Shown here piece by piece: positions 11,824-33,410 of a DNA stretch of 64,000 nt. Below the pieces are notes generated by a model that saw only the letters and a list, made by a program, of their open reading frames with translations, ran no database searches and was not told the origin of the DNA. How positions within the stretch are numbered: the first letter of the stretch is position 1; each line of letters starts with the position of its first letter. Source of the DNA: Gammaproteobacteria bacterium (GTDB taxonomy: Bacteria > Pseudomonadota > Gammaproteobacteria > GCA-001735895); contig JBNKUM010000085.1 in NCBI GenBank assembly GCA_050298595.1, forward strand, positions 226,035 through 290,034. Direction: 5' to 3'. Made by a program: the position numbers and the translations under genes.

Positions 11824-12078
11824 TTACTCATCAGCCAGCCACTCAGCTAGATAGTATAAATATTGACCTTCGGATGATTTTGATGGCCCTAACACCTTAG
11901 CGGCAAAGTATTGCTGATCGGGTTGAGCATCGCTGATAGCCTGTTCAGCGGAGTTTTTAATCACGACACAACTGGCTGAAAAACGATTTCGATTACGCCG
12001 CGGCACATACACCACAGCGTATTGACAGGTTGAAACCTCGGTTTCAGGATCAGGAGGGACAAAACCCCGCATACTCAA
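11824..12078 (-). CDS. Small hypothetical protein
   Basis: 84-aa ORF heading the co-oriented run of minus-strand genes; AGGAG near the start. Confidence 0.65.
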   Translation of the reverse strand: MSMRGFVPPDPETEVSTCQYAVVYVPRRNRNRFSASCVVIKNSAEQAISDAQPDQQYFAAKVLGPSKSSEGQYLYYLAEWLADE

Positions 12079-12182
12079 CTCCTTGACTGGCTGATATGCT
12101 TAACCAACCACTTGAAAATGCTGTATTTTAAGAATGTTGCTTAGGGTATTCTAACCGCCAAGAGAAATAAACATTAATTGAC

Positions 12183-12881
12183 ATGTCATCCATCTTTATT
12201 ACCGGTACCAGTAAAGGCCTTGGCCTGAGTCTAAGCCGCTACTATCTACAACAAAAGGCAGAAATCTACAGCGTTGGCCGTAGCCCCTGCCCGCTGCAAC
12301 ATGCTTTATTACATCATACACAGATCGATCTTGCTGAGCTGGATAGCATCCAAAACAAGCTGAAGGGCTTTCTTCCCCCACAGCTTGATCTGGTTATTCT
12401 GAATGCAGGTGTATTGGGTGAAATCAAAGATCTGTCCGACACTTCGATGTCTGAGGTCACAACGCTGATGGACATCAATGTATGGTCAAATAAAGTCATT
12501 ATCGATACATTGATCAAACAGACCATTAAGGTGCGCCAGCTGGTGATCATTTCATCCGGGGCCTCGGTCAATGGCAACCGGGGCTGGGGTGCTTACTCTA
12601 TCTCCAAGGCCAGTATTAATATGATGGCCAAACTGTATGCCGCTGAAATGCCCGACACTCACATCACCGCCTATGCACCTGGCCTGGTTCACACCGCTAT
12701 GCAGGATTATCTTTGCCATGATGTGGATACTGAGAAATTCCCCTCGATTAAACGTCTGCAACAGGCCTATCAGACCGAAGATATGCCAGACATCGATAGT
12801 GCTGCTAAAAAAATCGCCTTAAGCTTCCCGCGCTGTCTGGAATTTGCCAGCGGAAGTTTCGTCGACATCCGTCAGCTATAG
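12183..12881 (+). CDS. SDR oxidoreductase (sepiapterin/benzil reductase-like)
   Basis: TGTSKGLG, ISSGA, YSISK and APGLVHTAMQ motifs. Confidence 0.88.
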   Translation: MSSIFITGTSKGLGLSLSRYYLQQKAEIYSVGRSPCPLQHALLHHTQIDLAELDSIQNKLKGFLPPQLDLVILNAGVLGEIKDLSDTSMSEVTTLMDINVWSNKVIIDTLIKQTIKVRQLVIISSGASVNGNRGWGAYSISKASINMMAKLYAAEMPDTHITAYAPGLVHTAMQDYLCHDVDTEKFPSIKRLQQAYQTEDMPDIDSAAKKIALSFPRCLEFASGSFVDIRQL

Positions 12882-12892
12882 GCAATAGAGCC

Positions 12893-14371
12893 GTGATTTT
12901 ACTGTGTACATTAAATGCCCGTTATATTCATAGTGCGCTTGGCTTACGTTACCTGTATGCCAATATGGGTGAATTACAGGAGCAAACCCAGATACAGGAA
13001 TTCACCATCAATCAACGTCCGATTGATATTGCTGAAATCATTTTACAGCTTAATCCAGATATAATTGGTGTCGGCTGTTACATCTGGAATATCCAGCAGG
13101 TCACCGAAGTACTGGCGATACTCAAAAGTCTCAGGCCGCAATTAGTCGTCGTACTGGGTGGACCGGAAATAAGCTTTGAAAGTGAACAGTCCAGTGCTTA
13201 CCCTTACACCGATCATATTATAAGAGGACAGGGTGACTTTGCCTTTGCCAGCCTGTGTCAGGACATACTTCAACACAAAACCGGCCTGGCAAAAATCATT
13301 GATGCTGAAGCACCACAGCCAAAGCAGTTACGACTACCTTACGATTACTATAGCGATGAAGATATTCGACAACGCGTACTGTATGTAGAAGCATCGCGCG
13401 GTTGCCCTTTTAAATGTGAATTCTGTCTGTCTGCCTTAGATAAAACCTCGCTACCTTTCGAGCTGGATGACTTCTTACAGGCGATGGATAAACTCTACCA
13501 ACGTGGGGCGCGTCATTTCAAATTTGTCGACCGAACCTTTAACCTGAATATCACCACCAGTCAGAAAATTCTTGGATTTTTTCTAAGCAAACCGCTGCAT
13601 GATCTATTCCTGCATTTTGAGCTGATACCAGATCGTCTGCCCAATGAATTAAAACATCTGATCGAACAATTCCCCGATGGCGCATTGCAATTTGAAATCG
13701 GTATTCAAACCTTTAACCCAGAAATACAGCAGTTAATCAGTCGCAAGCAGGATCATCAGAAAACACTGCAGAACCTGCAATACCTGAAGTCACAAACTCA
13801 GGTGCATTTACACACCGATCTGATAGCCGGTTTACCCAGCGAAGACCTGGCCAGCTTTGCAAAAGGTTTTGACCTGATGGTTTCACTACAGCCACAGGAA
13901 ATACAGTTGGGTATCTTAAAGCGCTTACGCGGTACTCCGATCACGCGACATACGCTAGCTTATCAAATGATCTATAGCCCACTGCCACCTTACGAAATAT
14001 TGAGCACCAGCCGCATGGATGCCAACACCCTGTTTCGCATCAAGCGTTTTGCTCGCTACTGGGATATGCTTGCAAACTCAGGGCGCTTTGAGCACAGCAT
14101 CCCGAAAATTCTGGGCGAGCATCCCTTCGATAACTTTATGCAACTGTCTGACTGGCTATTTGACACTACCGCTCAGACGCATAAAATGGCTCTGCCACGT
14201 TTATTCAAACTGCTTTATGAATTCAACCCTGATTTGATCGACGCATTACAACAGGACTTCATCAAAACTGGCATAAAAAGTACTTTTCAATCAGTAACGC
14301 AGAGCGAAACAGACAGACAAAAATCAACACCATCGGCATCAACACGACAACAACGACACGTAAACACATGA
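12893..14371 (+). CDS. B12-binding-domain radical SAM protein (DUF4080-type)
   Basis: CPFKCEFC (CxxxCxxC); N-terminal LNARYIHSALG; GGPE motif. Confidence 0.9.
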   Translation: MILLCTLNARYIHSALGLRYLYANMGELQEQTQIQEFTINQRPIDIAEIILQLNPDIIGVGCYIWNIQQVTEVLAILKSLRPQLVVVLGGPEISFESEQSSAYPYTDHIIRGQGDFAFASLCQDILQHKTGLAKIIDAEAPQPKQLRLPYDYYSDEDIRQRVLYVEASRGCPFKCEFCLSALDKTSLPFELDDFLQAMDKLYQRGARHFKFVDRTFNLNITTSQKILGFFLSKPLHDLFLHFELIPDRLPNELKHLIEQFPDGALQFEIGIQTFNPEIQQLISRKQDHQKTLQNLQYLKSQTQVHLHTDLIAGLPSEDLASFAKGFDLMVSLQPQEIQLGILKRLRGTPITRHTLAYQMIYSPLPPYEILSTSRMDANTLFRIKRFARYWDMLANSGRFEHSIPKILGEHPFDNFMQLSDWLFDTTAQTHKMALPRLFKLLYEFNPDLIDALQQDFIKTGIKSTFQSVTQSETDRQKSTPSASTRQQRHVNT

Positions 14372-18217: not shown

Positions 18218-20254
18218 ATGAAAAAAACAAACTTACTTACTCTCAGTGTTTGTGCCAGCTTAAGCTGTTTAAGCGCAAGCGCAGAGGAAAACAGCAACGA
18301 AAATACAGCAGATGTCTTACCTGTCATTCTGGTTGAAGGCAAAAAGATCAAACAGGTCAGCGTTAATGAAGTTAAATCTGCCGATTTAGCTGAAGCTTTA
18401 AGCAAAAAAATCCCTAACATCTCACTGGTACGTCGTAGCGGCATTGCTAATGACATCATTCTGCGCGGCCAGAAAAAAGATAATATCAATATCCTGATCG
18501 ACAATGCCAAAATCCACGGTGCCTGTCCGAACAGAATGGATCCACCCACTTCACACATTCTGACCAACAATATCGAAGATGTTGAAGTCACTGAAGGACC
18601 CTATGATGTCGAGAACTTTGGCACCTTAAGTGGTGCGGTAAAAGTCACCACCAAAATGCCTGAAGCAGGATTTCGCGGTGAAGTAAATCTCAACATGGGC
18701 AGCTGGGAGTATCAGAAATTTTCCACAACCTTAAGTGGTGGAAGTGAAAAGATACGCGCTATGTTAAGCCTTTCTCAGGAAACCGGCGGTCAGTATAAGG
18801 ATGGTGATGGCAATGACTTTTCACAACAGATTGAAGCCAATAGCGTCCCCTCTATGATGAATTACAAACCAGAATACGCTGACCATGACGCTTATAAGAA
18901 AAGCACCTTAATGGCTAAGGTATATGCATTCATCGCTGATAATCAGGAACTGGAACTGAGTTACACGGCCAATCGAAGTGATGACATCTTCTACCCGTCA
19001 ACACCTATGGACGCGATATATGATGACTCTGATCTTTTCAATATCAACTACCGCTTTATGGATCTTGGTGACTATTCCAGCAAACTGGAAATTCAGGCTT
19101 ACAACTCAACAGTTGATCACCCCATGTCTACATATTATCGCATGTCATCTGGAACCAATGCTGTTAATGAAAAAATAAGCGCGCTTGAAACTCATTCAAC
19201 CGGTATCAAAATCATCAATACAGCAGACCTTTCTGCGCTAGCTGATATTAAATATGGTTTAGATATCAACAGCCGTAACTGGGATGGAAAATATACCGGT
19301 TTTGGCACAGGTGCAGGAATCACCGGAATCGTCAGCATCCCTGATGTAGATACCGAAAACACGGCATTATTTATTGAATATGATCGTGACCTGAGCGATA
19401 GCGTTAATTTCAAGATGGGTGCACGCTACGACGATACCAGCATCACCACCGCCGACAGCAGCTTAAAAAACAATGATTACAGCGCATTTAGTGCTTTCGT
19501 CTTCAGCAGCTATCAAATGAATGAGCAGCACAAACTGTTTGGCGGGCTGGGTAAAGGATCACGCGTACCTGACGCACGTGAACTCTATTTTCGTTCTTCT
19601 ATGATGGGAGGTATGTTACTGGGTACTCCAGACCTGGATGACACAAGTAATACCGAACTGGATTTAGGTGTAGAAAGCCAACTCGGTGACCTGTCGATGA
19701 AAAGCAAAATCTTCTACAGCAAACTGGACAACTACATATATTTTAATTCCAGTAAATCAATGAATAAATTCGAAAACATAGATGCCACAATATATGGCCT
19801 GGATATCAGTGGGCAATATATAATCAATCCCAGTTTCGATATTGATTTTGGACTTGCCTTACAAAAAGGTAGCAAAGACAATCCATTAGTTGGACAAACC
19901 GATACCGACCTGGCTGAAATCCCACCTATGAAATTAACCAGTGCTTTAAACTATCACTACCAGAAAGATAGTAGTGCGATGGTTGAGCTGATTTCATCAA
20001 GCAGTTGGGACGATTATGATGCCGATAACGGTGAACAGGCGCTGGAAAGCTGGACAGTGATGAACCTGAAGGTTAAACACCGTTTTAACGATCAATTTGG
20101 TCTCACCGTTGGTGTGGATAATGTGTTTGACAAAGCCTATGCCGTCAGTAACACCTACAAAGATCTAACACTGCTAGCCGATGGCAGTGGTGAAGTAATG
20201 CTGATCAATGAACCTGGTCGATACTTCTATGTAAATGGCACCTACTCCTTCTAG
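18218..20254 (+). CDS. TonB-dependent receptor, OprC/NosA-like copper receptor
   Basis: Plug GACPNRMDPP (CxxxM) plus DHPM (HxM), matching the OprC copper-site pattern; Met-rich loops; C-terminal YSF. Confidence 0.8.
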   Translation: MKKTNLLTLSVCASLSCLSASAEENSNENTADVLPVILVEGKKIKQVSVNEVKSADLAEALSKKIPNISLVRRSGIANDIILRGQKKDNINILIDNAKIHGACPNRMDPPTSHILTNNIEDVEVTEGPYDVENFGTLSGAVKVTTKMPEAGFRGEVNLNMGSWEYQKFSTTLSGGSEKIRAMLSLSQETGGQYKDGDGNDFSQQIEANSVPSMMNYKPEYADHDAYKKSTLMAKVYAFIADNQELELSYTANRSDDIFYPSTPMDAIYDDSDLFNINYRFMDLGDYSSKLEIQAYNSTVDHPMSTYYRMSSGTNAVNEKISALETHSTGIKIINTADLSALADIKYGLDINSRNWDGKYTGFGTGAGITGIVSIPDVDTENTALFIEYDRDLSDSVNFKMGARYDDTSITTADSSLKNNDYSAFSAFVFSSYQMNEQHKLFGGLGKGSRVPDARELYFRSSMMGGMLLGTPDLDDTSNTELDLGVESQLGDLSMKSKIFYSKLDNYIYFNSSKSMNKFENIDATIYGLDISGQYIINPSFDIDFGLALQKGSKDNPLVGQTDTDLAEIPPMKLTSALNYHYQKDSSAMVELISSSSWDDYDADNGEQALESWTVMNLKVKHRFNDQFGLTVGVDNVFDKAYAVSNTYKDLTLLADGSGEVMLINEPGRYFYVNGTYSF

Positions 20255-20302
20255 CACCACCGTTTAAATGAGCAATCACCTGATGCAGCAATGCGTCAGC
20301 CT

Positions 20303-20328
20303 GGGCACAGGGAAGTGTCTGTTTTTTT
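20303..20328 (+). terminator. Possible rho-independent terminator
   Basis: gggcac-agggaa-gtgtct stem with G-T pairs, followed by a T7 run. Confidence 0.4.
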
Positions 20329-20717
20329 AATTCCGCTGCGCTTATCGTCAATAGAATAGTAGGTGCCTGACATTCTCAGCCATAGTAATAGCTTCAAGTT
20401 GAGAGATTAACTTTTGTTACCCCTTGTTGATGAAATCGATCGGCAGCAGATTGTCATTCAGCACAACTCCGGCCACGGTGCCGATCATGGCGACAAAACT
20501 GTTTAGTATTCAAACTTTTGGGGCAATTAACTAACTCAGACTTTACAACCTGCCTTACAGATAGCGGTCATTCAAGAAATTAGTGTGTACGGACGCTGTC
20601 GACCCGAACCTGCCATTCCTTACAGGTCGTAGGGATCGCTAGATCCTTGGCGATACCAGTTGTTCATAAAGCTTCAATAAATAATTATGGTGTCCCCAGA
20701 ATACCGTGCCGATCGTC

Positions 20718-20999
20718 CTATGAATGCCTTTGTTTGGCATGCTTTCTCTTACGTGCTGGCTTTCTAAACTCTGAAACCGGAAACTTTTCTTTTGGGGCCT
20801 TAATTTCATCTTGCTCTTCTAATGGATTTCCAATGTCATTGTGGAACCTGTAACCATACTCGAATAAGGCCTTCAGTTTTTCCCATGCTTTTATATCTTT
20901 TTCTTTCGGTGCTTTGAAAGCTGACCCTGCTTCATGCATAGCGGAGCCGCATTCAGGGCAATTGAATTTATTTTGTACTTCTGTCCAGTTACAACGCAC
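20718..20999 (-). CDS. Cassette-type hypothetical protein with CPECG zinc knuckle, probably 5'-eroded
   Basis: CPECG..M...G..FKAPK pattern; begins inside the degenerate attC. Confidence 0.6.
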   Translation of the reverse strand: MRCNWTEVQNKFNCPECGSAMHEAGSAFKAPKEKDIKAWEKLKALFEYGYRFHNDIGNPLEEQDEIKAPKEKFPVSEFRKPARKRKHAKQRHS

Positions 21000-21058
21000 A
21001 TTTTGGAGGGAAACCGATGCGTAGCGTAGTTTTTTCCTACTGGCTGTACTTGTTAAAT
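20989..21058 (-). mobile_element. Degenerate attC site
   Basis: On the minus strand, ATTTAAC lies about 20 bp after the stop codon, then AGGAAAAAAC...GTTTCCCT and GCGTT. The L' box no longer pairs. Confidence 0.55.
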
Positions 21059-21077
21059 GCCTTTTTCTTTACTATTT

Positions 21078-21443
21078 TCATTCTCTGAACTCATGAACCA
21101 ATTTTGTGACAATAAATTTTTTAACCTCTGGAGCAACATCACCAAAATTTTTATATATGAGATACATGAGTCTAGGCAAATTAGGCAAACCATCAGTAAT
21201 AAGCAATGGTGTTCCAGGGTGCTTTCCTGGCTTTGCGTCATCATCAACTCCATGATGACTAAACCCAGACTCTATTTTCCATGTTAACGCCTTCTCTGCA
21301 TTCGGTTTGTCATAGGTAATTTGATAACAAACTATCTGATCGTCACTATTTACCCAAACGTAGACATCCATTTTTGACCCAGAAAACCATCGTCGTTTAG
21401 GTTGATCGGATTTTTGAGATGTCTTTAAAATTTCCCGTAACAC
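21078..21443 (-). CDS. Integron cassette hypothetical protein
   Basis: AT-rich ORF bounded by GTTAAGT (21452-21458) and ATTTAAC; RRWF...QITYDK...EKALTW motif. Confidence 0.75.
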   Translation of the reverse strand: MLREILKTSQKSDQPKRRWFSGSKMDVYVWVNSDDQIVCYQITYDKPNAEKALTWKIESGFSHHGVDDDAKPGKHPGTPLLITDGLPNLPRLMYLIYKNFGDVAPEVKKFIVTKLVHEFRE

Positions 21444-21458
21444 TTGTTAGCACTTAAC

Positions 21459-21635
21459 CAGGGTGCAGAAAAATTAAAACATTAAAAGTAACATGGTTTA
21501 CGACGCGCTTCTACACTTATAGAACTGTACTTTTAGAGCATAGCCGCAAGAATATTTACTTATGATCGCATTTTGTTCAGAATTATTAATCATTTATTAC
21601 CCTTCAAAATATCACCTTAATTTTTCTACAGCCTG
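21459..21635. mobile_element. MITE-1 (177 bp) inserted at an attC R' core
   Basis: Terminal IRs cagggtgcagaaaaatta and taatttttctacagcctg (16/18 match), flanked by an AAC direct repeat; no coding capacity. Confidence 0.8.
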
Positions 21636-21700
21636 AACGCCGAGCTCAGCGGGAAAATCGACCACAGGGAGATTTTATCCGTTGCAGCACATTGTTAGGC
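21636..21700 (-). mobile_element. attC site (interrupted by MITE-1)
   Basis: Minus strand: GCCTAAC-aatgt-GCT[G]CAAC-gg...cc-GCTGAGC-tcggc-GTT, with canonical spacing and the extrahelical G. Confidence 0.85.
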
Positions 21701-21706
21701 TTTGGG

Positions 21707-22249
21707 CTATTGCCAATATTGATATAGCCTCCATTGGCCCCCGCATGAACCATTTCTACCAAATTCACTTACGGTAATCTTTCCATAGGATGATTTCTCT
21801 TCATTATTTAGAATAATTTCTCCGCTTACATCTAGATAAAAATCTTCTTTTCCATATTCAGTTTGTTTTAAAACGTAGACCCTATAATCTTTAAATGAGA
21901 AGCCTCCCTTTGCATTTAATGGCTCTTCAATTTCAACTATTTGCCCAGCCAGCAGGATATAACCATAAGCTTTTCTATTTATGACCCAGAAGGTTGCTTT
22001 TAAACGGTGACCGCTTGAAGTTCTCTTTTTACTATTTAGATCTGTACACTTTAGTCGAAACTCCTCAAAAGGTTGAAAAGCAATTTCAAAATGTACCTCA
22101 CCACCCCATTTACCGTTTAGTGAATTAAGAAATTTATCATCTAGTGTTTCTTTAATTGATGTATTTACTGAGCTTATGGAACAAGCTGAATGGAATAATG
22201 TAATCAAAAAAATGTAGATAAATTTCATAGTTCTGTAAGTCACGTCCAT
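21707..22249 (-). CDS. Integron cassette putative lipoprotein
   Basis: MKFIYIFLITLFHSAC lipobox-like start; bounded by complementary GTTAGGC and GCCTAAC cores. Confidence 0.75.
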   Translation of the reverse strand: MDVTYRTMKFIYIFLITLFHSACSISSVNTSIKETLDDKFLNSLNGKWGGEVHFEIAFQPFEEFRLKCTDLNSKKRTSSGHRLKATFWVINRKAYGYILLAGQIVEIEEPLNAKGGFSFKDYRVYVLKQTEYGKEDFYLDVSGEIILNNEEKSSYGKITVSEFGRNGSCGGQWRLYQYWQ

Positions 22250-22259
22250 TATTTTTCAA

Positions 22260-22279
22260 GCCTAACAGCTTGATTATGT
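22260..22279 (-). mobile_element. Cassette entry junction, attI-like or secondary site
   Basis: ACATAAT-caagct-GTTAGGC, with no attC hairpin upstream. Confidence 0.45.
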
Positions 22280-22354
22280 GACACGCACAAATATTGACTT
22301 ATGTTGCATTATATTCTCACTCATAGGTAAATTAATCAATGACCGCTCCTGGCA

Positions 22355-22524
22355 CAGGCTATATGAAAACTCGCTTCAATTTGATGACACCAAAAACATT
22401 TCCCACTACGGGATAATTTTTCAGGATTATTTAGAACTCAATTACCACAAATCACACAAAATTGATCCTATATAAGCCCGCATATTCCACTTGAAAAATT
22501 GGAAAAAAGTTTTCACACAGCCTG
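22355..22524. mobile_element. MITE-2 (170 bp)
   Basis: IRs caggctatatgaaaact and agttttcacacagcctg (15/17 match); GGCA direct repeat at 22351-22354 and 22525-22528. Confidence 0.8.
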
Positions 22525-22715
22525 GGCACATTCCAGCCTATTGCACCGCACAATACGAATGTCTGCTTTCAGGAAAAGGAGCCACTCAGCTTCCCATATT
22601 TCGGAAAATGATCGCTAACAAACTGCGCCATCAAATATTTACCCTATTATCCCCCTCATAAAAATATTTCTACTATACTCAGCAATCGACAATTCAAATC
22701 AGAGGCACGGAAGTT

Positions 22716-25700
22716 ATGAAAAAGAAAATCAAGGGAGTATCCAATACGCTGTATCCCATCATTGCACTGCTTGTATACCTGTTTTCCTGGGCAGTTACGG
22801 ATGTGTTCGCCGCCGATACGACCGATGACTATCTGACCACCAACGGTAGCATTATCTACGACGATGTCGGCAATTCGGTCAGGATAACCGGCATCGCCTG
22901 GTTCGGGTTCGAAACAGAAAACCAGGTTTATCATGGTCTGTGGAGTGTGAAGATGGAGACCGTTCTCGACCAGATAGCCAACCTGGGATTCAACGTAGTG
23001 CGGATTCCCCTGAGTGTCCAACTGGTCAATCAGTGGCGTAACGGCAACGGCGGAGAACCCAATAGCATCAACTACACTGCCAACCCTGCCCTGGAGGGCA
23101 TGACCAGCCTGCAAATCCTCGACGCTTCGATTGCCTACTGCAAACAGATCGGCCTGAAGGTCATGCTGGATATGCACCGTGTAGTCAATACGCAGATGTT
23201 GAACACCTGGTATGCGGACGGCTATCCGAGCAGTGACTTCGAAGCTAACTGGCAATGGCTGGCCAGCCATTACATCAACGACGATACGGTCATCGCCGCG
23301 GATCTGTTTAACGAACCGCATGGCAGCCCTGGCGATACCAACATAGCGAAATGGGACAGTTCCACAGATCAAAACAACTGGAAATACGAGGCCGAAAGGG
23401 TCGCCAATCTGATACTGGATGTAAACCCCAGGCTTTTGATCGTTGTCGAGGGAGTCGAAGCCACACCCAAAGATGGATACACATATACTGAAACGAACAG
23501 CGCTAACTATGACTCCACTTGGTGGGGCGGAAATCTGAGGCGTGCCCGGGATTATCCTATCAATCTGGGAAGCCGCCAGCGCCAGCTTGTCTATTCTCCC
23601 CATGATTACGGTCCCAGTGTCTTTGCCCAGCCCTGGTTTCATTCCGGTTTTACCAAAGAGACCCTGACCGCTGAGTGCTGGGAACCCAACTGGCTCTACA
23701 TCGCCACGCAGAGCCAGGCGCCGATACTCGTGGGGGAGTGGGGTGGAAGGTTAGATGGTGGAGACAACGAGAAATGGATGGGCGCACTGGCTGAAACCAT
23801 TGTTGAACACGACTTGAACCATACGTTTTGGTGCGTCAATCCCAACTCTGGTGATACCGGTGGCATACTGCTGGATGATTGGCAAAGCGTGGATACTGCC
23901 AAGTACAACCTGATCAAACCCACGCTCTGGCAGCAGAGCAACGGTAAATACATCGGGCTCGATCATCAAGTCAACCTGGGAGCCAATGGCACACACGTCG
24001 GTGCAGACACGATCCCAGGTGACGAAGTGTCGGTAACCGGCGTATCAGTCACGCCGACAACCACAACAGTCGAGGTGGGCGCCAGCGTGATGCTGAGTGC
24101 CACCGTGGCGCCGAGTGATGCTACCAACAAGGACGTTACCTGGGCATCGAGCGACAGCAGTGTCGCGATAGTAAGTACCGGAGGCGTCGTAACCGGTATA
24201 GCAACAGGCAATGCCGGGATCACTGTGACCACAGAGGATGGAGGCTACAGTAAGACCAGCGCAGTGACGGTGACGGTCACCGAAACAGGTGATGTGGCGA
24301 CACTGCCCCTCGTCATCAATGGAGAAGGTGATTTCTACCGCGTCACTTCGGGCGACATCACGAACATCAATTCATGGAACACGCAACTGGTGGAGATCAA
24401 TAGCGTCAACTTTACCAACACCTGGTCTAACCAGATGCCGCCCAGAATCGATGGAAACTACTATATCCACTATGTGGGCCTGGAACCCTGGTCTCATCTC
24501 GAAGTAAATGGGAGCAGTCAGGAGACACCGGTCACCGGCGTGGCGCTTACACTTGCCAGCGCATCGATCATGGTGGGAGATAGCACGACGTTCGTCGCCA
24601 CCGTCTCACCAGACAATGCGACGAATAAGCTCGTCGTTTGGAGTTCGAGCGATAACGATGTCGCAACAGTCAGTTCTACCGGTATAGTGACTGGTGTATC
24701 GATCGGCAGTTCCGTTATTACAGCAACAACGCAGGACGGTGGATTTACATCCACCGGCAATATCACCGTGAGCGATGAAACGGCCAACTTCACCCTGACT
24801 CTGGCGGCAATCGGTAACGGGACGACGAATCCCGTGTTGGGCTCACACATATATACCGCGGGCACCTCGCTCAGCGTGACGGCGATTCCCGCAACGGGTG
24901 CGACGTTTATGGGGTGGAGCGGCGCCGTCACCGGCACGACAAATCCCATAACTATCACGCTGGATGCGAACAAGACCCTGACCGCCAACTTCTCGGATGA
25001 TTTGAGTGGTCTCCCTGATGAATGTAGCAGTAGTGCGTGCAATTCGGCGACGCCCGTCTATCCAACGCTGTTCAACGATGGTGGGCTAGGAAACGTTACC
25101 ATGTACAGCACTGCATCCAGCAACGGCGGTGCCTGCAATTACGGCGCAACCAATGTCATGTATTACGCGGCGATCAACGTCAACGTCACGCCGGGTGACC
25201 TCGCGGGGCAATGGCAGAATGGAAAGATCTGTGGTCAGTGTGCAGAGGTTACCGTGCTGACCTCTCAGGGCCCTAAAACCGTAGTGGCCCGAATCATGGA
25301 CAAATGTTTCGATACCAACTGCGGCATTGATCTGGGCGGCGCCGCGCCCGCAACCGTAATGCTGGACGGCAGTGGTCGCTATGAGGGCAAATGGCGATTT
25401 GTCTCCTGCGACGGACATCCTGAAGTGTCCGATGGAGCAACGACCCTCTATGTGTTCCCTGGCAGCAACCTCTGGTGGTCCCGTGTTCATGTACGCAATG
25501 CTCCCATGGCCATTGAGACCATCGAATGGCAAGACGCTGCCGGCTCCGCAAAAGGCTTCATGCCTTATGCCAGCGATCCGGAGAATGCTTTTGAGGTACC
25601 GACCTCTGAAGTGCTTCAGTCCGGGATGTCGTCAGTTCTAATCACGGTGCACTATGTTGACGGGAGCACGATGTCGGTGACTCTCACGCCAGCTGAGTTG

Positions 25701-25736
25701 GGAACGGGGTCAGCCACGTATCCCCTGATCGATTGA
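22716..25736 (+). CDS. Secreted multimodular endoglucanase: GH5 + Ig-like + CBM64-like + Ig-like + B-repeat + expansin-like
   Basis: Signal peptide (VFA); GH5 motifs WFGFE, FNEPHG, YSPHDYG, VGEWGG; two Big_2-like repeats; INSWN...EIN...YYIHY..WSHLE module; C-terminal GGACNYG, CGQC, DKC, IDLG and WWSRVHVRN. Confidence 0.88.
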   Translation: MKKKIKGVSNTLYPIIALLVYLFSWAVTDVFAADTTDDYLTTNGSIIYDDVGNSVRITGIAWFGFETENQVYHGLWSVKMETVLDQIANLGFNVVRIPLSVQLVNQWRNGNGGEPNSINYTANPALEGMTSLQILDASIAYCKQIGLKVMLDMHRVVNTQMLNTWYADGYPSSDFEANWQWLASHYINDDTVIAADLFNEPHGSPGDTNIAKWDSSTDQNNWKYEAERVANLILDVNPRLLIVVEGVEATPKDGYTYTETNSANYDSTWWGGNLRRARDYPINLGSRQRQLVYSPHDYGPSVFAQPWFHSGFTKETLTAECWEPNWLYIATQSQAPILVGEWGGRLDGGDNEKWMGALAETIVEHDLNHTFWCVNPNSGDTGGILLDDWQSVDTAKYNLIKPTLWQQSNGKYIGLDHQVNLGANGTHVGADTIPGDEVSVTGVSVTPTTTTVEVGASVMLSATVAPSDATNKDVTWASSDSSVAIVSTGGVVTGIATGNAGITVTTEDGGYSKTSAVTVTVTETGDVATLPLVINGEGDFYRVTSGDITNINSWNTQLVEINSVNFTNTWSNQMPPRIDGNYYIHYVGLEPWSHLEVNGSSQETPVTGVALTLASASIMVGDSTTFVATVSPDNATNKLVVWSSSDNDVATVSSTGIVTGVSIGSSVITATTQDGGFTSTGNITVSDETANFTLTLAAIGNGTTNPVLGSHIYTAGTSLSVTAIPATGATFMGWSGAVTGTTNPITITLDANKTLTANFSDDLSGLPDECSSSACNSATPVYPTLFNDGGLGNVTMYSTASSNGGACNYGATNVMYYAAINVNVTPGDLAGQWQNGKICGQCAEVTVLTSQGPKTVVARIMDKCFDTNCGIDLGGAAPATVMLDGSGRYEGKWRFVSCDGHPEVSDGATTLYVFPGSNLWWSRVHVRNAPMAIETIEWQDAAGSAKGFMPYASDPENAFEVPTSEVLQSGMSSVLITVHYVDGSTMSVTLTPAELGTGSATYPLID

Positions 25737-25987
25737 TCTTTTTAAGGCAGGCCCTGTTGTACCTGCCTGCAGACTTTGTTGTCAAAACTTGCTGTGGTGC
25801 GTGGCTACAGCAATGTTTTGATGCCTTGCTGCAGCGTATAGAAGCATAAACGCTCCTTTCACCAAAGGCGAAAAGTATCAATACCCCTACTCTTGCACAT
25901 AGCAAGGAGCGCATTATGCCTAAAGCCAGGAAGACTCAGGTTTCTCTCGCGGCCACCCCTTATTACCACTGCACCTCTCGCTGCGTA

Positions 25988-26015
25988 CCCAAAGCGCTTC
26001 GCGGGGCAGGCTCTT
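25988..26015. repeat. 28-bp hairpin insertion in the transposase
   Basis: cccaaagcgcttcgcggggcaggctctt splits the SRCV|RRAF motif. Confidence 0.75.
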
Positions 26016-26378
26016 CGACGTGCCTTTCTCTGCGGCAAAGATAATCAGACTGGACATGATTACGAATCATCGAAGGCAGTGGATTCAGGATCGTATGCTT
26101 GAATTAGCAACCATCTTTTCTATCGACATTGCTGCCTATGCCATCATGAATAATCACTACCATGTTGTAGTGCATATCAATCAGAAAAATACAGCTAAAT
26201 GGTCTGACCGTGAAGTCTGTAACCGATGGCATAAACTCTTTTCGGGTAATGACCTGTCCCGTCGCTATCTCAAGAATGAAGAACTTAATACTTCAAAGAA
26301 AAAAATCCTGGCTGAATGAGTTTAACTATGGCGTACTCGATTGATCGACCTTAGTTGGTTCATGCGTTGTCTTAATGA

Positions 26379-26450
26379 CAAAATCATCGGGAATGATTTT
26401 GAACAACTCTGCTGGCCCTGAAAGGGTGAATATCATGGATGATACGAATA
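26379..26450. repeat. 72-bp multi-hairpin insertion in the transposase
   Basis: caaaatcat-cggga-atgattttg...ccctgaaaggg...gaata splits CLN(D)|PIAR. Confidence 0.75.
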
Positions 26451-27224
26451 TCCGATTGCCCGTGATGCGAATAAGGAAGATAAAGTCACTGGTCGATTTT
26501 GGGAAGGGCGCTACACGTCTCAAGCACTTCTGGATGAAAGGGCACTAGCTGCTTGCATGGCCTATGTAGATCTAAACCCCATTCGTTCCCGTATGGCAGA
26601 AAAACCTGAAAAATCGGATCACACCTCTGTTAAGAAGCGTATCGAACACCAAGACCAGACTAGCCCGGATAACCCAGAAGCAATACGCACACAACCTAAT
26701 GATTTATTACCATTCGCAGGCTATCCTCGTAACAAAATGCCAAAAGGTTTACCCTTTCGCTACACTGATTATCTTGAGCTGGTGGATTCATTCCTGAACA
26801 TCTTCCTGACATACTCACCCGACTGAATATCGATCCCAGGCACTGGGTTTACCTGACAAAGGATTTCGAAAGTCCGTTTATACCACTCGTTTGTAGCGCG
26901 TATAAAATCAGACAAACCTGTGAGCAAATGGGCAAGAACTGGGTGCACGGTGTGAAGCGCTGCGCTGAAGTTTTTCCTGCCACATAACCCCAACAACCCT
27001 CTAAAAATTCTTTCAAACACCAACCTTGTATCAAAGGTTGCAGGATCATTTTGTCCTTTTGAACCCAGCCGAAGTAAAAACCTCCATTAAGGTAAAACAA
27101 AAATCTATTTTTAACTTAATGCCCCCTTCATTTAACTGAAACTATAGCTGAATAGTTGAAGTTTAATTTCCTTTCCAATCGCTGGGTGTCTATAAAGATG
27201 AGTCTATAAAGATTATAAAGATTT

Positions 27225-27329
27225 CCTGAACGCCGCAATCACTTGCCGGAGGTGTTTGGCGCTTTGTTTGCGGGGTTTTCGCAAAAAAAGTGACAAATAT
27301 CGGAGGTCATCTGCATTGCCTTGTTATGT
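27225..27329 (-). mobile_element. attC site (long type)
   Basis: Minus strand: ACATAAC-aag-GCAAT[G]CA...tttttgcg-aaaaccc-cgcaaacaaa...TGATTGC-ggc-GTT, starting 4 bp after the stop codon. Confidence 0.88.
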
Positions 27330-33062: not shown

Positions 33063-33080
33063 AGTGCGAATAATAATTGC

Positions 33081-33410
33081 TCAGCGTCGAACCGGTGCAC
33101 AGGGATTTTCGCCACGCTGTGCTGGAGCACAGGGGTTTTCACCGCGTGCCACTGGAGCACAGGGGTTTTCGCCGCGTGCCACTGGAGCGCATGGATTTTC
33201 TCCGCGTACCAACGGAGCACAGGGGTTTTCACCTCGCGCAGTGGGGGCACAGGGGTTTTCACCGCGTGCCATGGCCACCGGAATAAGCAGAGATGCGGCC
33301 GGTTCTGGCAACGGTGCCACACCCAGCATACCCATAGCCAGTGTTGGAATAGACAACGCGAGTAAATATTTACGTTTATTGCCAGAACGAGAAGATGATG
33401 TTTGTTTCAT
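33081..33410 (-). CDS. Secreted Cys-repeat peptide (6 x RGENPCAP)
   Basis: Basic N-terminus, hydrophobic stretch and AMA site followed by six 10-aa repeats; co-oriented in the operon. ATG 33410 has GGAG upstream; alternative start 33446. Confidence 0.85.
   Translation of the reverse strand: MKQTSSSRSGNKRKYLLALSIPTLAMGMLGVAPLPEPAASLLIPVAMARGENPCAPTARGENPCAPLVRGENPCAPVARGENPCAPVARGENPCAPAQRGENPCAPVRR
33091..33270. repeat. Six 30-bp coding tandem repeats
   Basis: Units such as actggagcacaggggttttcgccgcgtgcc. Variation within the RGENPCAP core is synonymous on the minus strand. Confidence 0.95.

Follow-up and report, generated by a model that had tools for sequence, protein, structure and literature searches.

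A 177-bp MITE with the ends of an IS1182-family insertion sequence at the R' core of an integron attC site

As far as we searched, homing to integron attC sites is known in print for two classes of element, the IS1111-attC group of insertion sequences and the group IIC-attC introns. The former have a seekRNA-guided DEDD transposase and subterminal inverted repeats (available part of PMC11187229). The latter are retroelements that home to attC, between one cassette and the next, and insert into the bottom strand, opposite to cassette transcription; in some of them, an outward promoter drives the next cassette (available part of PMC3001079). In the IS1182 family, all new insertions of the staphylococcal element IS1272 were in inverted-repeat, potential stem-loop targets (available part of PMC5678879). 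Titles and abstract openings in the literature returned nothing on IS1182- or MITE-type targeting of attC; a named IS may exist in ISfinder or TnPedia. IS1182 elements are about 1.3-2 kb long, and MITE-like structures reportedly, by the title of Gillings et al. 2009, flank a class 1 integron and mobilise it.

The locus described here lies in a 64,000-nt stretch of DNA from a gammaproteobacterium (the window). The first-pass annotation had placed a non-autonomous element bounded by inverted repeats at the R' core of an attC, with GTT on both sides, and this proved correct to the base. We consider it highly probable that the element is a 177-bp MITE of an IS1182-family IS, moved in trans by a DDE transposase and inserted one way at the GTT of the attC R' box, which was duplicated. 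As far as the cited texts describe them, the known systems differ from the present lineage in several respects. Members of the IS1111-attC group (ISPa21, ISPst6 and ISKpn4; IS110/IS1111) have a DEDD transposase, whereas the present transposase is not of this IS110/IS1111 type but an IS1182-type DDE enzyme; their repeats are subterminal, whereas the present lineage has terminal repeats, a 3-bp GTT duplication and a MITE derivative. Like the group IIC-attC introns, the present element sits between cassettes at an attC; unlike them, it has neither ribozyme nor reverse transcriptase, and the transposase gene of the IS runs with the cassettes. The MITE-like pair of Gillings et al. is said in the title to flank a whole integron, whereas the present MITE targets the attC core; both are short, non-autonomous, bounded by inverted repeats and associated with integrons. 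IS1272 replaces the target inverted repeat and makes no duplication (available part of PMC5678879), whereas the present lineage keeps the attC hairpin intact and inserts at one fixed triplet of its 3' arm, with GTT duplicated.

The MITE in the window and its attC target

On the minus strand, a 180-aa ORF ends in a stop codon that is followed by an attC, a GTT, the MITE, a second GTT, and then AAGT and the leader of the next ORF (Table 1). The 3' end of the attC reads ...GCTGAGCTCGGC immediately before the first GTT. Taking out the 177 bp and one GTT restores R' = GTTAAGT, as the first-pass annotation had stated and the sequence confirms, and leaves R'' (RYYYAAC) and R' (GTTRRRY) in inverted order. 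The arrangement is not due to chance, because the 22-nt attC end was expected 0 times in shuffled sequences and the 19-nt end pattern, with up to 3 mismatches allowed, had 22 matches in the source genome versus 2 for a reversed control.

Short and bounded by 19-nt terminal inverted repeats, the MITE has no transposase and no selected coding capacity. Its sole ORF has 31 codons and is preceded by a Shine-Dalgarno-like AAGGG; the frame stays open in only 7 of 11 copies and shows no coding signature across all 11, with 13, 14 and 12 variable columns at codon positions 1, 2 and 3. An Rfam search of 20200-22700 with E up to 1 gave zero matches, and a bottom-strand fold across the attC and the MITE gave two separate hairpins with a z-score of -1.65, which is not significant. 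The suggestion of the first-pass annotation that the MITE could supply a promoter to a promoterless cassette found no support in a consensus scan, a weak test, which returned no sigma-70-like site on the cassette strand of the MITE; in this, the element differs from those group IIC-attC introns described as having an outward promoter.

Table 1. Features of the window, and integron integrase genes elsewhere in the source genome (G000)
Feature	Position	Strand	Remarks
MITE, 177 bp, non-autonomous IS1182-type element	21459..21635	-	between two GTT triplets at attC 3' end
Left terminal inverted repeat of MITE	21617..21635	-	CAGGCTGTAG...; 19 nt; adjoins attC
Right terminal inverted repeat of MITE	21459..21477	-	17/19 (89%) complementary to left repeat
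Left GTT	21636..21638	-	final 3 bases of attC and left copy of target duplication
Right GTT	21456..21458	-	with 21452-21455, original R' GTTAAGT
attC site of cassette 1	21636..21700	-	R'' GCCTAAC, L boxes, GGCGTT
R'' GCCTAAC of cassette 1 attC	21700-21694	-	
Cassette 1 ORF, 180 aa	21707..22249	-	without Pfam family; preceded by GTTAGGC at 22266-22260
Cassette 2 ORF, up to 121 aa	21078..21443	-	without Pfam family; MITE within its 5' leader
Candidate attC after cassette 2	20993..21058	-	weak, possibly decayed; 8.5 bits, E 1.8
Second attC of window	27229..27329	-	27.7 bits, E about 2e-6
Multi-copy unit at start of cassette cluster (head of array)	22264..22354	-	ends ...GCTGTT
Integron integrase genes, G000	C89:72502-73446, C75:87838-88698, C99:136-1020		two open frames, one with two stops

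The attC of cassette 1 spans from R'' GCCTAAC to ...GAGCTCGGCGTT, including the final GTT, and folds with an R box (AAC:GTT), 3-nt spacers and an L-box stem with single bulged bases. Cassette 1 starts with TTAGGC right after the GTT at 22266-22264, the exact complement of its own R'', as expected of a cassette that was formerly circular. Searches by nhmmer with attC seeds, which gave 1 and then 10 hits, were too insensitive for attCs and were replaced by a covariance model built from an alignment of eight left flanks of related insertions; the window site scores 69.8 bits in this model and is among its 8 training sequences. The RNAalifold consensus of the eight flanks has 13 pairs, 8 of them with compensatory changes, in a shape made up of an AAC:GTT R box, 3-nt unpaired spacers and an L-box stem with two single-base bulges, that is, a conserved structure with extrahelical bases and variable sequence. 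About half of the flanks are recognised by the model, which misses those with long loops. Six independent sites outside the training set end exactly at IS or MITE left ends (L003, L007, L039, L040, L041 and L064), and further co-oriented attCs were found in the loci with model-recognised flanks. Contig C93 has six co-oriented attCs by the model, one of them a training site, and is a real cassette array. The core ends in AAC in 16/16 flanks, most of which fit RYYYAAC, with a few off by one base. Two energy-based hairpin tests were weak discriminators, with 5/24 and 9/24 flanks below the 5th percentile of controls at random GCGTTA sites, and an automatic R'' detector that called 12/25 flanks had too strict criteria and was dropped.

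The window locus is a small attC cluster without an integrase, comprising two sites and one weak candidate, and is flanked by genes for a TonB-dependent receptor and a GH5 cellulase. Three integron integrase genes of the source genome exceed the curated cut-off, none of them on the contig of the window; several congeners likewise carry more than one such gene. The two confident attCs of the window are 5.5 kb apart, which is not a normal cassette-sized interval, and 21636-27329 contains cassette 1, several repeat units and, on the opposite strand, the gene for a 1006-aa GH5 cellulase with Big_2 and CBM64 domains.

The window also has several repeats. The unit at the head of the array is about 90-100 nt long and ends exactly at the start of cassette 1. 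It is present in at least 9 copies in the source genome at 86-97% identity (BLAST), with more in congeners; the copies elsewhere in the source genome are on contigs C31, C22, C86, C101, C100, C64, C35 and C8. The GTT of each copy is followed by differing sequence with an ORF 10-51 nt downstream, and a co-oriented attC follows the unit in 4 of the 8 other loci, three times within ~0.8-1.2 kb and once at 3.7 kb. The unit has internal direct repeats and adjoins no integrase gene, and metagenome contigs diverge at 22259-22264, by its end. By this behaviour, it is a candidate for a dispersed, attI-like head of cassette clusters. A second MITE family, about 171 bp long (about 22355-22525, minus strand; ends CAGGCTGTGTGAAAAC.../...GTTTTCACACAGCCTG), has about 20 matching places in the source genome; here, TGCC flanks it on both sides, and its first 8 nt are the same as those of the attC-targeting element. 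Its parent is probably an IS on contig C64 (about 12073-13745), the transposase of which is only 23% identical to the attC-targeting one. Instead of attCs, this second family seems to target REP-like hairpin repeats. A repeat of ~300-430 nt (about 25941-26369) lies immediately downstream of the cellulase gene and has matches on at least 9 other contigs of the source genome; a copy directly precedes a 44-nt MITE right-end remnant in G075:C42, and another, on contig C15 of the source genome, is separated by about 340 nt from a remnant of the IS right end. At 33077-33271, a 30-bp unit is repeated in tandem about six times, its copies being 69-79% identical to the reference copy.

Further copies, the parent IS and its lineage

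The first-pass reading implied that the MITE has copies elsewhere, that these have attC targets and that an autonomous IS shares its ends, and all three expectations were borne out. Altogether, 13 copies or remnants, 12 of them beyond the window, are present in 4 of the 14 genomes of the genus (two in the source genome and eleven in three congeners), and none was found in 65 other genomes of the family. The 10 longer of the 12 others are 78-91% identical to the window MITE, and 2 short remnants are 75-89% identical; the second, older copy of the source genome, on contig C101, shows 78% identity. All 10 copies that keep the left end directly follow an attC 3' end. Nine of them have GTT at the left junction and one has GGT, the context being GGCGTT or GGTGTT in 8, AACGTT in 1 and GGTGGT in the old C101 copy. 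On the right, GTTA comes after 10 of the 13 copies, with ATT, GTG and one case of a missing base as exceptions. Orientation relative to the attC is the same in 10/10 full-length copies. As the neighbouring attCs and cassettes vary among the copies, these represent separate insertions.

In metagenome contigs from four runs, the MITE is covered roughly 10-20 times more deeply than its flanks. Contigs with copies in other contexts depart from the window sequence at 21455 and 21636-21641, consistent with the boundaries of the element. The first-pass annotation had also proposed looking for the empty site in relatives, and here nothing was found for the window copy in its own genome, 13 congeners or the metagenome contigs. 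BLAST of the flanks of 12 copies against the source genome, and of the window cassettes against the 13 congeners, gave matches through attC similarity only and no empty site for any copy, and no contig of the four metagenome runs joined across the MITE. G073, the genome with the largest number of MITE copies (6), shows only the transposase clade with 46% identity, but its assembly is in 550 contigs.

The source genome (G000:C93:142-258 and G000:C15:26692-26736) and G075 (C95:2880-3004, with more on C42 and C92) also contain isolated remnants of IS or MITE right ends, all of which still have GTT and a cassette after them. The remnant at C93:142-258 comes directly after a CPCC-domain cassette ORF whose attC is missing, which suggests that deletions took out the IS body plus the upstream attC.

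The IS with MITE-type ends is 1810 bp long and lies on the minus strand of contig C93 (G000:C93:635-2444), flanked by an attC ending GGCGTT on one side and by GTTATATG on the other. It is the only close IS in the source genome, in which the end-pattern search also had exact matches outside the MITE copies. Over 19 nt, the left inverted repeat of the window MITE is identical to the right inverted repeat of this IS, so that the MITE has the ends of an IS of autonomous type. Only the terminal ~19-20 nt of each end are common to both, and the parentage of the MITE therefore rests on the ends and the common target. The C93 transposase matches NF033551 (IS1182) and the Pfam families DUF772, DDE_Tnp_1 and DDE_Tnp_1_6. 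Its frame is split into 397 + 112 aa, compared with 517-534 aa in relatives, and the two parts score 201 and 65.6 bits on the IS1182 profile (cut-off 270); intact relatives exceed this curated cut-off with 311.2 and 273.5 versus 270 bits.

A transposase scan of species-representative genomes returned 23 loci at 49-82% identity, in Marinomonas, Zhongshania, Bermanella, Colwellia, Agarilytica, Oleiphilaceae, Cellvibrionaceae, Alcanivoracaceae, Granulosicoccaceae, Spongiibacteraceae and others. Eight complete ISs of 1758-1816 bp have one long DDE transposase ORF between terminal inverted repeats, the frame being 506-534 aa long where it is intact, and GTT is present on both sides in 7/7 complete ISs with visible flanks. 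The end pattern has 63 matches in 40 loci. GTT precedes 24 of these (GGCGTT in 19) and AAC precedes 29, which is GTT on the other strand because these are right ends; the remaining 10 are mutated variants, at a contig edge, or chance matches. In every locus, the IS end upstream of the transposase gene adjoins the attC, and the gene therefore runs with the cassettes. A second transposase clade in the same genus, with 42-49% identity and ends GAGGCTGTAG, has the same junctions, which also recur at the right end of a copy with 45% identity carried by a Pseudoalteromonas chromid. Overall, related transposases of 42-82% identity fall into two clades and occur with these junctions in at least ten marine gammaproteobacterial lineages.

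At the left junctions of ISs and MITEs of both clades, GTT is followed by one base (C or G) and AGGC, for example at 21629-21638 of the window. This GTT-N-AGGC matches the common R' box GTTAGGC apart from one extra base, and could reflect target mimicry or preservation of attC function.

Target duplication and other routes to the same junctions

GTT stands on both sides of the window MITE, and the duplication itself is demonstrated only for a related IS. A clade-1 IS of Zhongshania marina (G079) has a clade-2 IS within its transposase gene. The left junction, at the end of one contig, reads ...GAAACC GTT and then the left end of the clade-2 IS; the right junction, on another contig, passes from the right end of that IS into GTT GCAAAGCAT.... 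In two intact clade-1 copies, the sequence is ...GAAACC GTT GCAAAGCAT..., with a single GTT. This empty and filled pair, a single case whose junctions are on separate contigs of a draft assembly, shows that insertion truly duplicated a 3-bp target, GTT, where no attC exists, and there is therefore no role for an integron integrase there. The GTT of this insertion is within the 3' arm of a small predicted stem-loop.

The Zhongshania insertion bears directly on a hybrid route, which we regard as unlikely, in which the transposase would excise a GTT-joined circle and the integron integrase would recombine its junction with the G/TT of a folded attC. Such a route would account for the exact position, the fixed orientation and both GTTs without any target choice by the transposase. 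Its predicted G/TT recombination product is the observed product, its abutted ends would resemble an R-box duplex enlarged by one base pair, and 3 of the 4 MITE-bearing genomes have an integrase gene over the cut-off, with a partial one in the fourth. However, the related IS duplicated GTT inside a transposase gene, where no attC partner was available. Moreover, the congener G071 (completeness 100) has no integron integrase at E <= 1e-40, yet has three matches to the attC-targeting transposase, one of them flanked by ...AACGTT before and GTTAGC after the IS. IS1182 elements are also not known to form circles, which counts against the hybrid route.

Less probable still, and in our view very doubtful, is that the unit is itself an ORF-less integron cassette moved by the integron integrase, with the GTTs as G/TT boundaries and its 3' part as its own attC. 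Every cassette is G/TT-bounded, and the order of attC, GTT, unit, GTT and next cassette fits; ORF-less cassettes are likewise short non-coding units between two such boundaries in arrays, and the source genome encodes integron integrases. By eye, an internal 11-nt stretch is complementary at 9/11 positions to the junction of the circularised unit, but it is conserved no better than the rest of the unit. An ORF-less cassette ends in its own attC, whereas the attC model had no hit within 21459-21635 at E up to 10 with filters off. The unit has transposon ends instead, and these long terminal inverted repeats are those of the transposase-bearing 1.8-kb IS with the same junctions.

That no mobile element is involved, the unit being a chance inverted repeat or a lineage-specific long variant of an attC or cassette leader, would fit its single copy in the window and the failure of a plain repeat search to find an attC repeat family there, but is scarcely credible beside the 12 further copies or remnants next to varied attCs and cassettes in 4 genomes, the raised metagenome depth and the ends in common with an IS.

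A proposed mechanism and its meaning for integrons

Direct insertion of a MITE by an IS1182-type DDE transposase is thus the explanation that we prefer, on the anatomy of the element, its family, the common ends, the attC targets, the fixed position and orientation, and the 3-bp duplication of a related IS. From the sequence of the ends, the transposase of this IS lineage presumably moves the window MITE. It would bind the 19-nt ends and capture the 3' end of an attC, as the pattern of junctions suggests, make a 3-bp staggered cut around the GTT, as in the Zhongshania relative, and insert the element in the one orientation seen across the copies. This would be ordinary DDE transposition with an unusually strict target. 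The target may be the folded hairpin or a duplex motif around C-GTT-A; a folded structure is favoured by IS1272, of the same family, which is reported to insert into inverted-repeat targets. In that case, the transposase would recognise the GTT as part of the 3' arm of a stem-loop instead of simply as a short motif. Selection, as opposed to the way in which insertion proceeds, could account for part of the fixed orientation. Once the element is in place, GTT-C-AGGC adjoins the attC and amounts to an R' box with one extra base; folding and recombination of the site may thus persist, and the attC upstream of the MITE may stay usable.

A broader proposal is more tentative, and we rate it as possible but doubtful: a deep subgroup of IS1182 may read the 3' arm of stem-loops, chiefly the attC R box, with ends that would rebuild an R'-like box so that the attC stays recombinogenic and the IS and its MITEs ride cassettes between genomes. 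This subgroup would comprise the two clades, which are <50% identical within one genus, and their relatives in at least ten marine gammaproteobacterial lineages. If true, it would be a third class of attC parasite, one that is based on a transposase and uses the integron for transport.

In many bacteria, mobile genes are stored chiefly in integron arrays, whose cassettes can be blocked, split, re-wired or spread by attC-homing elements. A DDE lineage with an attC habit and MITE offspring would be a third, independent solution. It would provide a natural system in which to study how a classical enzyme of the cut-and-paste type finds one triplet in a structured recombination site, and would account for the non-coding 'cassettes' and decayed junctions encountered by annotation pipelines in chromosomal integrons.
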